Below, piece by piece: positions 28,839-34,142 of a stretch of DNA of 64,000 nt. This DNA is from an uncultured virus (IMG/VR IMGVR_UViG_3300020305_000266). Taxonomy: Duplodnaviria; Heunggongvirae; Uroviricota; Caudoviricetes. Position 1 is the first letter of the stretch, and each line of letters begins with the position of its first letter. The notes below the pieces were generated by a model that was not told the DNA's origin, searched no databases, and saw only the letters and a program-made list of their open reading frames with translations. A program made the translations under genes and the position numbers. The stretch is taken from IMG/VR virus record IMGVR_UViG_3300020305_000266. One strand, 5' to 3'.

Positions 28839-29179
28839 TGGATGATGAAAATAAAATTACTATAGATATTACAAAGCCAGATGATAATTATACTACTCAT
28901 ATAGGAGGAATGACAATTAGTCCTTGTCCTTCTATGTATACTACAGATTTAAATGATACCGGTACTGAGTTCGCTTATAATACTACGTATACAAGCACTG
29001 ACGGTTATACAATTACTCTTCCAGGCCTAGATGACAGTTTACAAGATACTTGGCCCGCTGAATATAGGGTAAAAGAAATGATAGAAAAGTATCCTGCTTT
29101 AAAAATACAGTATGAAAAATTTATTGAGATTTATAATTTGATAAAAGATGATCATAAGGATGATTTGGATGTTATCTAA
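28838..29179 (+). CDS. hypothetical protein
   Basis: Thr-rich N-terminus; KYPALK...YNL. Confidence 0.65.
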   Translation: MDDENKITIDITKPDDNYTTHIGGMTISPCPSMYTTDLNDTGTEFAYNTTYTSTDGYTITLPGLDDSLQDTWPAEYRVKEMIEKYPALKIQYEKFIEIYNLIKDDHKDDLDVI

Positions 29180-29672
29180 GTTGTTTGAAAAATTAGGAAG
29201 AAAAAGGGTTATCACAGATAGAAGTGGTACAATACCTTATCTCATACGTTATTATGTATTTTTAAAGGAAAGAAAGAATTTTCCGTTTAACATTACACTT
29301 CATAAGGTACTTGTAAGTGACGAACCTGTATTACATGATCATCCTTGGAACTGGGGAGCAGTAATTTTAAAAGGTGGTTATTGGGAACATATTCCAATCA
29401 TTTCACAGGAAGGAGCAGTAGTAGGTAGCACAAAGGAGTGGCGTGGTCCTGGACACATTAGATTTAGAAAGGCGGAAGACTTACACTGGTTAGAATTAGA
29501 AAAAGACAAAAACGGAAAAGAGATTCCTTGTTGGAGTTTATTCTTAATGGGTAAGAAAAGAACCGAATGGGGATTTGTAGATTGGGTACCAGCAACAAAA
29601 GATAATTGGAGAGAAGCAGGATATAAATGGGTACACAACGAAACATATTTGAAGGAAAAACAAAATGGTTAA
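29169..29672 (+). CDS. cupin-like protein
   Basis: LHDHPW...GGYWE...HWLEL metal-binding pattern. Confidence 0.6.
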   Translation: MLSKLFEKLGRKRVITDRSGTIPYLIRYYVFLKERKNFPFNITLHKVLVSDEPVLHDHPWNWGAVILKGGYWEHIPIISQEGAVVGSTKEWRGPGHIRFRKAEDLHWLELEKDKNGKEIPCWSLFLMGKKRTEWGFVDWVPATKDNWREAGYKWVHNETYLKEKQNG

Positions 29673-30198
29673 AAAGCATTATTATTCGTGGAAAGATGTT
29701 GAACGTAGTTGTGTAAGCATAGTAAACCAAATGTATACAGATCAGTGGAGACCTGATTATATTGTAGGTATCACCAGAGGTGGTAATATTCCTGCTACTA
29801 TTATAAGCAACATGACTGGAATACCTTGCGAAGCCATAAAAGTAAGTTTAAGAGACGACAGTAAACTTGAAAGCAATACCTGGATGGCTGAAGATGCGTT
29901 TGGAAAATTCCAACAAGGACAACCAAGGAACGAGTCAAAAAATATATTAATAGTAGATGACATTAATGATACAGGAGCAACATTCAATTGGATTGTTGAC
30001 GACTGGCAAAAAAGTTGTAACCCAGAGGATACTGGCTGGCGTGATGTGTGGTGTGAAAATGTACGTTTCGCAGTACTGACAGATAATTCAGCAAGTGATT
30101 TTAAATTTATGGTAAACTATTCAACCCACGAGGTTAACAAAGCAGAAGAAGATGTTTGGTTAGTATATCCTTGGGAAAGAGTAGGTACATATGATTGA
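29665..30198 (+). CDS. type I purine phosphoribosyltransferase-like (XGPRT-like)
   Basis: GITRGG, ILIVDDINDTGAT and WLVYPWE motifs. Confidence 0.88.
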   Translation: MVKKHYYSWKDVERSCVSIVNQMYTDQWRPDYIVGITRGGNIPATIISNMTGIPCEAIKVSLRDDSKLESNTWMAEDAFGKFQQGQPRNESKNILIVDDINDTGATFNWIVDDWQKSCNPEDTGWRDVWCENVRFAVLTDNSASDFKFMVNYSTHEVNKAEEDVWLVYPWERVGTYD

Positions 30199-30775
30199 CG
30201 CACAATTAATTTTTCCTACGAAAGTATATAGATCCAAGTTTGAAGATTCACAAGAGTTACAAAAAGATATTGTCCCTTTGTTGCTAGATCAAGAAAAGAA
30301 GGATACATCTCCTGTAAGGTATTCTGCTAACGGTTATACTTCTTATGGTGCTAACACAAATATATTAAGTTTACCACAATTAAGCAAATTAAAAGATTTT
30401 ATAAATGAAATAGTTTTAAAATGCCATGATGAAACTATGCTAGAAGGTACTCCTGTTCTTGAGTCCAGTTGGTATAGTATTATGAGAAAGCATACATACC
30501 ACGAAGAACATCATCACTTACCTAGTGTATGGAGCGGTGTTTACTATGTACAAGCTGATCAGACTCACCCCGGACTGACATTTGTAAATCGTAATCAAAA
30601 AGGACATTGGCCAAGAACAGGTGTAAAAGGATTGACAGAATTTAATTCTCCTGAAGTAACTTGTTCAGCTGAAACAGGAAGTGTAATTATATTTCCTAGT
30701 CATGTACTACATAAAGTACACCAACAAACTATTGACAAAGATAGGATAATGATAAGTTTTAATTATGGAATATAA
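30191..30775 (+). CDS. phage 2OG-Fe(II) oxygenase
   Basis: HHH...WSGVYYV...IFPSHVLHKV...RIMISFN. Confidence 0.8.
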   Translation: MIDAQLIFPTKVYRSKFEDSQELQKDIVPLLLDQEKKDTSPVRYSANGYTSYGANTNILSLPQLSKLKDFINEIVLKCHDETMLEGTPVLESSWYSIMRKHTYHEEHHHLPSVWSGVYYVQADQTHPGLTFVNRNQKGHWPRTGVKGLTEFNSPEVTCSAETGSVIIFPSHVLHKVHQQTIDKDRIMISFNYGI

Positions 30776-31124
30776 AGACATACCTTGGACAGACATATTG
30801 ATTGATTCAAAAGAATTTACAGTTTTTAGAGACGGATATCCAGTAACAGAAGGACACATTCTTTTTGTACCTAAAGGTAATAGTTGGGAATCTCTCGTAA
30901 AGTGTTTCGAAGCCGCATACAAATGGGGCTACGATTGGGTTGAACGTGGATATTGTGATGCGTTCAACATAGGACAAAATGTGGGCAAAGAAGCAGGTCA
31001 AACTGTTATGTATCCACACGTTCATTTAATTCCCAGACGTGAAGGCGATATGGGAGATCCACGCGGCGGCGTTAGACACGTGATACCTAGTAAGGGAAAC
31101 TACAGGAAGGAAAAGCAAGTATGA
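30765..31124 (+). CDS. HIT family hydrolase
   Basis: YPVTEGH and AGQTV.YPHVHLIPR motifs. Confidence 0.88.
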   Translation: MEYKDIPWTDILIDSKEFTVFRDGYPVTEGHILFVPKGNSWESLVKCFEAAYKWGYDWVERGYCDAFNIGQNVGKEAGQTVMYPHVHLIPRREGDMGDPRGGVRHVIPSKGNYRKEKQV

Positions 31125-31330
31125 AGGTTGGTGAAGCTATAATTAATGCGGCTAAGAAACAAGCAGAAGGCGAAGTTGCTGTGCATTTGGCTAACATTGA
31201 AGTTTATAAAACAATGCCAGCAGGTATTGGTGAACATTCAGATGTTACTGAGGCAGTTATCGCAGAGCTTGATAAATTAGCGGCCGCACAAGACAGACTT
31301 GACATGATTGAAAAATATTTTAATGGCTAG
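31121..31330 (+). CDS. hypothetical protein
   Basis: PAGIGEHSD motif; coupled ORF. Confidence 0.65.
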   Translation: MKVGEAIINAAKKQAEGEVAVHLANIEVYKTMPAGIGEHSDVTEAVIAELDKLAAAQDRLDMIEKYFNG

Positions 31331-32150
31331 AACATTATTCATTGGCGATAGTCATTCGCATGGTTATTTCGAAATGGGTGGTAAAATTCATTCATGGGAA
31401 AGTAATAATTATGCTGAGATTTATGCTAATGATAATAACAAACAAACTGTAATATACAGTATGCCAGGCGGGTGTAATAGAAAATATCCCGCCTGGCTAA
31501 AAACAATGCTTGATAGATATGATGATATTGATGAAGTCTTCATACAATCAACATATTGGAACAGATTTTTATTATCATGCTCCAAGAATCTAGGAGTAGG
31601 AGAAGAGACAGATTCTAGCCTATACTTAGACAACGACCAACCTAAAGATAGTTTAATTGATAGATATACTGATCATAGAATTACAGATGACTATATAGAA
31701 ATGATCGAACAGACTAGAAAAGAAAATTACGAAGAATTTAAAGGTTTTGCCTTTAATGATATGAAAGTAGGATATGACTTTCAACCATTTCATGAAAAAT
31801 ATTCATATACAAAACTATGGCACGAACTTGTAAGTCCTTTACAATACAAAGATTATTGTATAGACCTGTTAGCTATAGATACTATGTGTAAAAATAAAAA
31901 TATTAAATGGTACTTGTGGAGTATAAATGATAGAGTGTTTATACCACAAAATATAGACTATTACGGAAAACTATCTTGTGTAAGAGCTCCTATGAGTGCT
32001 GAAGCTTTCTTTAAAAGTAAAATGGATATAGATATTGAAACAGATCACTATCGATTAGATAGCGAACATTACATAAGAGAGATACACAATAAGATAGCAA
32101 GACAATATTTTGGCTATGTGAAGGATACCAATAATGAAAATAACACTTGA
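31323..32150 (+). CDS. SGNH/GDSL hydrolase-like protein
   Basis: FIGDSH near the N-terminus; DSEH near the C-terminus. Confidence 0.55.
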   Translation: MARTLFIGDSHSHGYFEMGGKIHSWESNNYAEIYANDNNKQTVIYSMPGGCNRKYPAWLKTMLDRYDDIDEVFIQSTYWNRFLLSCSKNLGVGEETDSSLYLDNDQPKDSLIDRYTDHRITDDYIEMIEQTRKENYEEFKGFAFNDMKVGYDFQPFHEKYSYTKLWHELVSPLQYKDYCIDLLAIDTMCKNKNIKWYLWSINDRVFIPQNIDYYGKLSCVRAPMSAEAFFKSKMDIDIETDHYRLDSEHYIREIHNKIARQYFGYVKDTNNENNT

Positions 32151-32175
32151 CAAAAACCTAAATAACATATATAAT
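32147..32175 (+). promoter_or_regulatory. sigma70-type promoter with embedded TAAATA
   Basis: TTGACA-17 nt-TATAAT upstream of folE. Confidence 0.8.
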
Positions 32176-32185
32176 AAACAGAAAA

Positions 32186-32214
32186 AGTGGCAATCCACTG
32201 CCTTAACATCGGAG
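32186..32214 (+). ncRNA. candidate riboswitch-like mini-pseudoknot in the folE 5' UTR
   Basis: GGCA/TGCC stem; loop TCC complementary to SD GGA; competing AGTGG/CCACT hairpin. Confidence 0.4.
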
Positions 32215-32220
32215 AAGAAA

Positions 32221-32907
32221 TTGAGTAAAAGTGATCAAATTGTAGAAAAACTAAAAAAATCAGGTATTAGATACTGGGCGGGTGATAACATCAGTCAAAT
32301 ATTAGAGCCCGGTGATAAAGAAGAACTTATTGAAGAACTAACACCAAAGTTTGAAGCAGTACTAGATAGTCTAGTTATTGATCGGTTTAATGATCCTAAC
32401 AGTATGGACACTGGTAGACGACTAGCAAAAATGTATATAAATGAAATTATGAGTGGCAGGTATGAACCTATGCCTAATGCTACTGCTTTTCCTAATCATG
32501 TAGATGATGGTTATAAAGGTATGTTAGTTGTGCGTTCAGAAATTAAAAGTATGTGTTCGCATCATCATCAGCCAGTTTCAGGTGTAGCATACATAGGTAT
32601 TATCGCCGCAGAAACACTTATAGGACTTTCTAAATATACACGTATCGCACAATGGTGTGCCAGAAGAGGTACATTACAAGAAGAACTTAATAATGTAATT
32701 GCTAATGAAATACAAAAAGCAACAGGTAGTGGGAACATAGGCGTTTACTTACAAGCAACACACGGTTGTTGTGAGAATAGAGGAATAGGTGCTCATAGTA
32801 GTTTAACACAAACCACTGTACTAAGAGGAGCATTTAACGAGGATCCAGGAACTAAAAAGGAGTTTATGGATAATATTAAATTACAACAGGAGTTCGCTCC
32901 TAGGTAG
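32221..32907 (+). CDS. folE: GTP cyclohydrolase I
   Basis: SMCSHH, GLSKYTR, LQEEL and HGCC...RG motifs; TTG start after GGAG. Confidence 0.95.
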   Translation: MSKSDQIVEKLKKSGIRYWAGDNISQILEPGDKEELIEELTPKFEAVLDSLVIDRFNDPNSMDTGRRLAKMYINEIMSGRYEPMPNATAFPNHVDDGYKGMLVVRSEIKSMCSHHHQPVSGVAYIGIIAAETLIGLSKYTRIAQWCARRGTLQEELNNVIANEIQKATGSGNIGVYLQATHGCCENRGIGAHSSLTQTTVLRGAFNEDPGTKKEFMDNIKLQQEFAPR

Positions 32908-32917
32908 AAAGGTAGAT

Positions 32918-33124
32918 ATGAATTTAAATCATTTTTCAGTTAGTATAGTTAAAAGTATTTTTAGAATCGTAGCAGGTGGATTACTATCCTATGGAGGCTA
33001 CGTTTTTTGGTCGGCAAATATGTACAGTGATATCTTTATAGCAGAGTCAGGTTTTGTTATAATGTTATCAGGTGGAGCATTTGTCATAGCAGAAGCATTA
33101 GGAATAATTGAGGAGATAGTCTAA
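32918..33124 (+). CDS. small two-TM membrane protein
   Basis: HFSVSIVKS.FRI...AEALGIIEE. Confidence 0.65.
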   Translation: MNLNHFSVSIVKSIFRIVAGGLLSYGGYVFWSANMYSDIFIAESGFVIMLSGGAFVIAEALGIIEEIV

Positions 33125-33237
33125 TGAAGTTAAGTGAATTTAGAAAAAAGTTTGGTGAAGGTACAGATTTCGACCTTGACTATGGTAAACTTTTTATTAT
33201 TGCTATTTGTATCTATATAGCTTTTCAGGTTAGTTAG
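33124..33237 (+). CDS. 37-aa membrane peptide (absent from ORF track)
   Basis: MKLSEFRKKFGEGTDFDLDYGKLFIIAICIYIAFQVS; GAGGAG SD; TAATG coupling; fills the gap to queE. Confidence 0.6.
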   Translation: MKLSEFRKKFGEGTDFDLDYGKLFIIAICIYIAFQVS

Positions 33238-33239
33238 AT

Positions 33240-34142
33240 ATGGAAAAAGCAGAAAAGAAAGTATATTACAGTGAAATATTTCACTCTATACAAGGAGAAG
33301 GACATTATACAGGTGTGCCTACTGCTTGGATACGTTTCTTTCTGTGTAATTTACAATGTAGTGGCTTTGGACAAATAGATCCTACTAATCCAGAAACATA
33401 TGATCTTCCGTTTTTAGATTACGATGTAAGTCAAGTAAAGAGAGTTGAAGACTTGCCTGTGTGGGAAAAAGGTTGTGATAGTTCATATACTTGGGCAAAA
33501 AAGTATAAACACTTAATGGGGCATGAAGTTCCTAGTACATTAGCAAATAGGATTGTAGATATACTAAGAACAGATTCTAATCCAGAAGGTTTGTTTTTAC
33601 ATCCTGTTAGTAAACAAAGACAACATCTATGTTTTACAGGCGGTGAGCCTTTAATGATAACAGGACAGACAGCAAGTATTGGTATATATGAAGAATTAGA
33701 AAAACAAGGTAACTTGCCTAGTTCGATGACTTTTGAAACTAACGGTACACAAAAGTTGAGAGATCCTTTTAAAGATTGGGTGAAAAGGATAGATGAAGAA
33801 GTGTTCTTTAGTTGTAGTCCTAAGTTATGGACAGTAGCAGGCGAGGAGGCTAAAAAAGCAATCATACCAGAGGTAGTAGGTGAGTATGCTGAACTATCTA
33901 AAGCAGGGCAACTAAAATTTGTCGTTGGTAGTGAACAACAACAATGGGATGAAATGGAATCTGTTGTAGAACAATTTAAAGCACAAGGTGTTGATTGGCC
34001 TATATGGGTGATGCCTGTAGGAGCAAGAGAAGAAGAACAGAGTGCGACAGCAGGTGATGTAGCAAAAATGGCATTTCAAAGAGGATATAATGTGGCGGCA
34101 AGAGTACATGTTTATCTATTTGGAAACGCAATAGGAACGTAA
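33240..34142 (+). CDS. queE: 7-carboxy-7-deazaguanine synthase (radical SAM)
   Basis: EIFHSIQGEG, CNLQC...GCDS, FTGGEP, ETNGT, SPKL and RVH motifs. Confidence 0.9.
   Translation: MEKAEKKVYYSEIFHSIQGEGHYTGVPTAWIRFFLCNLQCSGFGQIDPTNPETYDLPFLDYDVSQVKRVEDLPVWEKGCDSSYTWAKKYKHLMGHEVPSTLANRIVDILRTDSNPEGLFLHPVSKQRQHLCFTGGEPLMITGQTASIGIYEELEKQGNLPSSMTFETNGTQKLRDPFKDWVKRIDEEVFFSCSPKLWTVAGEEAKKAIIPEVVGEYAELSKAGQLKFVVGSEQQQWDEMESVVEQFKAQGVDWPIWVMPVGAREEEQSATAGDVAKMAFQRGYNVAARVHVYLFGNAIGT

Follow-up and report, generated by a model that had tools for sequence, protein, structure and literature searches.

A conserved phage leader RNA at the folE ribosome-binding site and its possible action as a compact preQ1-I-like riboswitch

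A stretch of 64,000 nucleotides of DNA from an uncultured virus (IMG/VR record IMGVR_UViG_3300020305_000266; the whole stretch is called the window below) carries a folE gene, encoding GTP cyclohydrolase I, behind a leader of about 39 nt between the promoter and the TTG start codon. The locus raises the question whether the small hairpin in this leader is a regulatory RNA or a chance fold and, if it is regulatory, what might act through it. The window belongs to a large uncultured marine phage: it encodes a DNA polymerase of family B and numerous enzymes that modify sugars and nucleotides, and it has matches to phage protein families. The original prediction, made from the sequence of the window, saw in the leader a two-state mini-riboswitch resembling the class I preQ1 riboswitches (preQ1-I). 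From our comparison with related phages we conclude that the element is a real, phage-specific and strongly conserved leader RNA at the folE ribosome-binding site: it exists, it is confined to folE leaders, its stem (P1) covaries, and its unpaired bases are fixed. Its function we argue by analogy; the reading that we favour, with a probability of about one half, is that the folE leader would be a phage-only translational OFF riboswitch of some 26 nt, built like preQ1-I.

Structure of the leader and its conservation

The promoter, the parts of the leader, and the gene are arranged in the window as follows (SD: Shine-Dalgarno sequence).

32147 to 32175, plus strand: sigma-70-type promoter, with TTGACA at 32147-52, a 17-nt spacer containing CCTAAATA, and TATAAT at 32170-75
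32189 to 32192, plus strand: 5' strand of P1, GGCA, whose partner is 32199-32202
32193 to 32198, plus strand: loop AUCCAC, in which the A is the proposed L1 and UCC (32194-96) the proposed anti-SD (5' strand of P2)
32193 to 32198, plus strand, 3' part of the same loop: the fifth base, A, is a variable spacer and C32198 the candidate ligand-pairing base
32199 to 32202, plus strand: 3' strand of P1, UGCC, covarying with 32189-32192
32203 to 32210, plus strand: linker (L3) UUAACAUC, of which AAC and UC are constant among relatives
32211 to 32214, plus strand: SD GGAG, in which GGA (32211-13), complementary to the loop UCC, is the proposed 3' strand of P2
32221 to 32907, plus strand: folE coding sequence (GTP cyclohydrolase I), with a TTG start at 32221-23 and a match to Pfam PF01227 (GTP_cyclohydroI, E 6e-37)

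The promoter had been called perfect from the outset, and it does agree with the consensus at 12 of 12 positions, as no other site within 31300-33300 does; from the position of its -10 box, transcription would start near 32182. The positions originally given for the stem, loop, linker, SD, and TTG all proved correct on re-reading, as did the statement that the element fills the entire leader; GGAG is separated from the TTG by 6 nt. The FolE protein of the window also matches PHROG 2197 and, below their equivalog cut-offs, the NCBIfam FolE models. Contigs from two oligo-dT marine RNA libraries are identical to 32069-32219 and 32116-32370 and span the predicted start, but neither start, strand nor level can be read from them, and DNA may be present in the libraries, so that nothing follows on transcription or on the 5' end.

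Folded singly, the window leader has an ordinary energy (z -1.2, with 18 of 200 shuffles folding equally well). A search of IMG/VR with the FolE protein returned at least 599 related stretches, of which the best 80 were used and 78 had usable upstream DNA; there the same leader recurs, with stems that differ in sequence yet remain complementary. The motif is present in 65 of these 78 loci, which were chosen by protein similarity alone, lying 31-58 nt upstream of the start codon or upstream of the open reading frame (ORF) that precedes folE, and all four stem pairs form in 64 of the 65 and three in the last. The strict motif is missing from 13 loci, namely three variants (L018, L020, L077) and ten without anything comparable. 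Loop and linker stay constant even where FolE is only 39-43% identical to that of the window (L104, L106, L152); the nearest record used, a 145.7-kb fragment rated 41% complete, has 78% of the window's sampled words in common with it.

Specificity for folE emerged from a pattern search of IMG/VR in which loop and tail were fixed and the stem was left open. It returned at least 120 viral stretches, and among the matches listed 91 of 120 lay upstream of folE, 82 of them with all four stem pairs and nine with three. Three of the 29 viral matches that do not precede folE also have four pairs, on loci that end 2-110 nt past the motif, while the remaining 26 are mostly GC-rich with zero to three pairs. 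The same pattern applied to one genome per prokaryote species gave, among the matches listed (at least 120), none with four pairs and none upstream of folE. All such counts should be read with the reservation that contigs of different samples may stem from one phage population and so do not equal independent lineages, for which the 18 stem types mentioned below are the better guide. A covariance model built from 121 leaders found a single site in the window (43.8 bits; next match 7.4 bits) and one in each of five related phage records (41.6-48.7 bits; next at most 14.5 bits). There is one copy of the motif per phage record, always at folE; neither in the window nor in these five records was a second copy found upstream of queE or of any other gene. 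As to close cultured relatives, blastn against phages yielded only two weak folE matches and tblastn found FolE at up to 61% identity; the motif is absent from the folE leaders of Rhizobium phage RHph_I1_18, Sinorhizobium phage Phosso, and Vibrio phage 2.275.O. No paper describing the element was found in a literature search outside which most subscription journals lay, so that a description may exist in print.

The alignment of 122 distinct leaders shows P1 as a covarying stem: 98% of its cells are paired, all four pairs change on both sides, and 18 stem types occur. The covariation score is 0.494 against 0.098 in shuffles, none of 500 shuffles scoring as high; sliding the register by one to three columns lowers the paired cells to 28-52%, and RNAalifold predicts the same stem unprompted. 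Pair 1 is G-C in 45 leaders, A-U in 41, U-A in 18 and C-G in 7; pair 3 is A-U in 57, C-G in 47 and U-A in 17; and pair 4, which closes the loop, is C-G in 75, A-U in 45 and G-C in 2. A fifth pair from the flanking bases was rejected, as it forms in only 59 of 121 leaders.

The constancy of the unpaired positions is in part built in, for the search patterns fixed loop and tail; a tail-only search, however, left the loop free. Its 88 folE-linked matches all form hairpins with the loop NUCCNC (AUCCNC in 87, GUCCUC in one), and none of its 28 matches away from folE has such a hairpin. The original prediction had remarked on an A in place of U at the first loop position, which is borne out by these counts, and it had proposed stem covariation around a fixed loop as a check, which the homologous leaders now display with the loop AUCCNC. 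The only free loop position is the fifth, where 75 leaders have A, 41 have U and 5 have C, and none of the 121 has G. The tail AAC(A)UCGGAG is constant among the leaders, its AAC and UC having been fixed by the search patterns; a locus found by the promoter pattern alone (L355) has AUC instead of the linker's AAC. Linker length, 7 or 8 nt, goes with the closing pair: the extra A (32208 in the window) is present in 45 of 45 leaders closed by A-U and in none of the 76 closed by C-G or G-C, and each of the two groups contains several stem types. This linkage fits a linker that lies along P1, as it would in an H-type pseudoknot, while shared ancestry could also yield it. With its variable stem and its fixed loop and linker, the leader has the pattern of conservation of an aptamer.

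These data also bear on whether the hairpin arose by chance, or instead belongs to the DNA or to the minus strand as an operator palindrome or an opposite-strand terminator. The stems are short, for which reason the original prediction had not set chance aside, and the alternative hairpin of the window described below, together with the T-run that follows it (32186-32202), scores as terminator-like on the minus strand. Chance is now excluded by the specificity of the free-stem searches (viral against cellular), by the covariation of P1 and by the free-loop search. The T-run flank is not conserved and the neighbouring genes all lie on the plus strand; we rejected the minus-strand terminator on account of its unconserved flanks. 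A feature at the level of DNA is opposed by the fixed asymmetric loop and tail and by the fixed distance to the start codon, which are properties of a plus-strand RNA. Explanations of this kind we regard as the least probable of all.

The window leader can also fold in another way.

32186 to 32199, plus strand: alternative hairpin AGUGG/CCACU (32186-90 with 32195-99), the minimum free energy (MFE) fold of the window sequence and peculiar to the window

It was proposed originally that this hairpin excludes P1 (GGCA/UGCC) and frees the SD, so that the leader would switch between two states. In the window itself the two hairpins are practically isoenergetic (-5.2 kcal/mol for AGUGG/CCACU and -5.1 for P1), and the alternative one does exist there as the MFE fold. 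It is not conserved, however: across the 122 leaders 45% of its cells are paired, the same as in shuffles (274 of 500 score as high), and its outer pairs are mostly broken, whereas P1 is in the MFE fold of 91 of the 122, with a stability of -1.9 to -6.2 kcal/mol. As a feature of the family the two-state scheme is therefore contradicted at the sequence level, and we consider it very improbable.

The ribosome-binding site, the promoter and the pairing of loop with SD

A leader RNA acting at the ribosome-binding site presupposes that the start of folE is rightly placed. In 60 distinct leaders the start codon is TTG in 30 and ATG, at the same place, in the other 30; an in-frame stop lies at most 60 nt upstream in 56 of them, and GGAG stands 5-9 nt before the start codon in 59. 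These features support the TTG assumed from the beginning. An in-frame ATG at 32134 was considered as the start of folE and rejected because of the conserved start position and the upstream stops, which leaves the start at 32221.

The element does not depend on its promoter. The promoter form TTGACA-N4-CCTAAATA-N5/6-TATAAT lies upstream of the leader in most relatives and occurs once in the window; it is not specific to folE, for in relatives (L325-L444) TTGACA-N4-CCTAAATA also precedes QueE-like and other genes without such a leader. On the other hand, a variant of the element with the loop G-CCU-Y-C directly follows the stop codon of the QueE-like gene and has no promoter of its own, so that the element goes with the folE ribosome-binding site and not with the promoter or the mRNA 5' end; this points to control of translation rather than to a role at the 5' end. 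In some contigs (L069 2444-2842; L070, L126, L134, L159) the motif precedes an ORF of about 132 codons without a Pfam or PHROG family, which abuts or overlaps a folE that carries an N-terminal extension. As a separate matter, the same promoter form stands in this phage group before a gene whose product starts MSDRTYG..EEKAKLERL. Also separate is an inverted repeat of 9-11 bp that many relatives (L021, L047, L050, L076, L038, L037, L049, L040) have in the last 60-90 nt upstream of folE: its 5' arm is formed by the -10 box of the promoter and its 3' arm lies in the leader; the arms differ among contigs yet stay complementary, and some repeats are followed by a T-run (read by eye). The window has no such repeat.

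The second pairing, P2, would join the loop to the SD. UCC (32194-96) and GGA (32211-13) are complementary in 122 of 122 leaders; they are invariant, partly because the search pattern fixed them, so that covariation cannot test P2. Two rare variant families offer another view of it, as their tail reads CUAGGAG in place of CUCGGAG. Their loops are G-CCU-Y-C, seen as GCCUUC and GCCUCC, and U-CUC-G-C, seen on at least three contigs, and in both families loop positions 2-4 are Watson-Crick complementary to the shifted SD triplet (AGG or GAG), the last loop base still being C. For a random triplet the chance of such complementarity is about 3/64, in loops that are pyrimidine-rich anyway. The retained complementarity is suggestive of P2 at the level of sequence without proving it. 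As a free duplex P2 would contribute -3.4 kcal/mol; with P2 and P1 both weak, the knot would need help to form, which is expected if something must stabilise P2.

This energetic argument bears on another possibility, namely that a constitutive hairpin or pseudoknot, independent of any ligand and perhaps sensitive to temperature or Mg2+, sets a low and constant level of folE translation or stabilises the mRNA. In many leaders only 1-13 nt separate the hairpin from the predicted 5' end. The weak codon TTG accounts for half of the starts, suggesting selection for low output, and compact H-type pseudoknots can fold without ligands. A simple stabiliser, in contrast, would not fix 14 unpaired positions (a count that owes something to the search patterns); in the form that lies inside the operon, after the queE stop, there is no 5' end that it could protect; P1 and P2 are weak; and feedback control would predict an element found at folE alone, the first committed step. 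We therefore hold a ligand-independent element to be unlikely.

Likeness to preQ1-I riboswitches and the genes around folE

The neighbours of folE indicate which pathway might be controlled. Its putative partner in the pathway is the following gene.

33240 to 34142, plus strand: QueE-like radical S-adenosylmethionine gene (PHROG 2076, E 2e-53; weak matches to NCBIfam QueE models)

It lies downstream of folE in the window and adjoins or is near folE in relatives. The conserved neighbourhood (29148-34142 in the window; L008-L075) comprises a cupin (phrog_4786), a purine-type phosphoribosyltransferase (PRTase) whose best NCBIfam likeness is xanthine PRTase, a 2-oxoglutarate-Fe(II) oxygenase, a HIT protein, folE, and the QueE-like enzyme, and all genes neighbouring folE are on the plus strand. 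PTPS/QueD is found in two of five partial genomes, far from folE. This gene set suggests that a 7-deazapurine may be made as the free base and then turned into a nucleotide, rather than being inserted by the base exchange of DpdA. The link to DNA modification that was originally supposed is conjectural, no DpdA/TGT having been found in six partial genomes of this phage group. Beside this, the leader of the QueD-like (PTPS) gene in a related giant phage (record G002, L446 ~1230-1452) is about 100 nt long and clearly forms a hairpin, whereas that in record G003 (L445) is short and plain.

The leader bears a hallmark of riboswitches, being a conserved structured candidate aptamer that overlaps the SD in the leader of a pathway gene, with the link to the pathway given by the QueE-like and PRTase neighbours. 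For the comparison with preQ1-I we draw on two published accounts (PMC11625349, PMC10622847). A preQ1-I riboswitch is an H-type pseudoknot that holds its ligand between P1 and P2, paired to a C just 5' of the P1 3' strand; the base in front of this specificity C is U in type I and A in types II and III (PMC11625349). The ligand is further contacted by a conserved U of L1, which immediately follows the 5' strand of P1, and by an adenine of L3, which is A-rich and occupies the minor groove of P1. The ligand rests on a conserved G-C closing pair, where O6 of the G binds the aminomethyl group of preQ1, and P1 has 5 bp in the solved examples (PMC11625349). Type III, from the Escherichia coli yhhQ leader, is described as the smallest natural aptamer, with 30-36 nt, and its short pyrimidine-rich loop pairs with the SD (PMC10622847, PMC11625349).

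Set against these descriptions, the phage element would share the small H-type design, with a short P1, a pyrimidine-rich anti-SD loop, and the SD triplet GGA or AGG in the putative P2. Its loop likewise ends, next to the 3' strand of P1, in a C that has A or U before it; the original prediction had pointed to the ligand-pairing C at the end of the preQ1-I loop, and a C at this place is present in all 88 folE-linked free-loop matches and in all three loop families. The proposed control is likewise translational, and the genes concerned are linked to 7-deazaguanine (the QueE-like enzyme and the purine-type PRTase). The phage element differs in that its loop has 6 nt, whereas the pyrimidine-rich loop of type III runs from nucleotide 6 to 12, before AC; in that its P1 has 4 bp instead of 5; in that its linker has two fixed adenines instead of a poly-A stretch; and in that it has been seen in phage contigs only.

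On the reading favoured here, P1 (4 bp) with its 6-nt loop AUCCNC, the linker of 7-8 nt and the SD GGAG would together make up a cis-regulatory RNA. Pairing of the loop UCC with GGA of the SD would create a very compact H-type pseudoknot, hiding the ribosome-binding site and lowering the translation of folE. The trigger would most likely be a guanine-like 7-deazapurine base from the pathway that folE opens; lodged between P1 and P2, it would form a pair with the loop C that stands invariant beside the P1 3' strand, and the outcome would be end-product feedback on the first step of the pathway. As the phage element has neither the L1 U nor the G-C floor pair, its ligand would probably be a 7-deazaguanine base other than preQ1; we speculate that the missing floor guanine would suit a ligand that lacks the aminomethyl group.

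Several points weigh against this reading. The 5' strand of P1 is followed by A, or by G or U in the rare variants, where preQ1-I has U or UU, and the closing pair, counted in 121 leaders, is C-G in 74, A-U in 45 and G-C in 2, without a conserved G-C floor. The bases that would flank the ligand differ between the variant families, which is unusual for a single pocket, and a loop of 6 nt leaves just 1 nt for L1 and 2 nt for L2. The evidence for P2 suffers from the invariance already mentioned and from the ease with which complementarity arises between a pyrimidine-rich loop and a purine-rich SD; one relative (L020), with the loop ACACAC and a normal SD, breaks P2. That about ten of the 78 folE relatives have no such leader at all means that the control is dispensable. 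Neither TGT/DpdA nor, beyond one marginal match of 23 bits, QueC was found in six partial genomes of the phage group (41-67% complete, fragments that cannot prove absence). The covariance models of known riboswitches give no help either: cmscan with all 4227 Rfam families at E<=10, on 801 nt and on 55 nt, returned noise only (sR41, mir-103, mir-1891), so that the comparison with the Rfam PreQ1 (RF00522) and THF-II models suggested in the original prediction yielded no match to either. In the five related records RF00522, whose gathering score is 39 bits, gave scattered matches of at most 13.9 bits, none at the motif; the model is insensitive to short variants, and only one of 14 control genomes exceeded the cut-off. 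We do not file the element as a member of RF00522, though by analogy it may work like one.

The variable flanking bases might be better tolerated by a protein than by a small pocket, and this is one of the arguments for a translational operator, in which an RNA-binding protein of phage or host would recognise the fixed loop and linker and block the adjacent SD. Translational repressors of the T4 type act on specific leaders, fixed unpaired bases on a covarying stem suit a protein site as well, and the position on the SD suits repression. No candidate regulator is linked to the element, however, the neighbouring genes being metabolic; the element serves one gene per genome, where known phage translational repressors serve many; and both the complementarity of loop positions 2-4 to the SD in three loop families and the linkage of closing pair to linker length point to RNA-RNA contacts. 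A protein operator thus seems to us an improbable explanation.

If the riboswitch reading is taken further, to a more specific and more tentative proposal that we think somewhat doubtful as a whole, the element could be the smallest natural riboswitch, with an aptamer of about 24-26 nt, and a phage-only fourth form of preQ1-I that has kept the pairing C and lost the L1 U and the G-C floor. It might then sense a 7-deazaguanine other than preQ1 (7-carboxy-7-deazaguanine, preQ0, or a new base) and throttle the first step of a DpdA-independent PRTase route to a 7-deazapurine nucleotide in giant marine phages. Should a ligand be found, the known size limit of natural metabolite-sensing RNAs would fall below the 30-36-nt type III aptamer, the smallest according to PMC10622847, and phages would be seen to possess RNA sensors of their own for the pathways by which they modify nucleotides. 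The RNA follows simple sequence rules, with a 4-bp stem of free sequence, the loop AUCCNC and the tail NNAAC(A)UC-GGAG, which makes it easy to synthesise and test. Moreover, the element is a marker for a group of genes that uncultured giant marine phages conserve, and its ligand would give a direct hint of what this group produces.

Other folE leaders

The THF-II riboswitch (the folE motif RNA of Rfam) resembles the phage element in its position upstream of folE. THF-II is a longer hairpin with an internal loop and occurs in bacteria; the phage leader, by contrast, gives no Infernal match to it at E<=10, whether 55 or 801 nt are used.

Two cultured phages have folE leaders of their own kind. 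In Sinorhizobium phage Phosso (469 kb; L203 2860-2947) the promoter has CTAAATA beside its -10 box, and in the leader GUGG pairs with CCAC to give a 4-bp hairpin, whose loop has 13 nt and which is followed by a long A-rich tail with UAGGAG at its end; this is a different motif. In Flavobacterium phage vB_FspM_immuto_2-6A, whose genes include those for QueD, QueE, a PRTase and DpdA, the folE leader (L448 ~2320-2378) forms a larger hairpin, the 9-nt loop of which ends in AC, followed by an A-rich tail (read by eye). This leader has the appearance of a canonical preQ1-I aptamer but gives no Rfam match either, which illustrates how insensitive the RF00522 model is to short variants. It resembles the window element in its place before a phage folE, in having a hairpin and an A-rich tail, and in the C that follows an A and adjoins the 3' strand of the stem; with its 9-nt loop and longer A-rich tail, it belongs to a separate sequence family.

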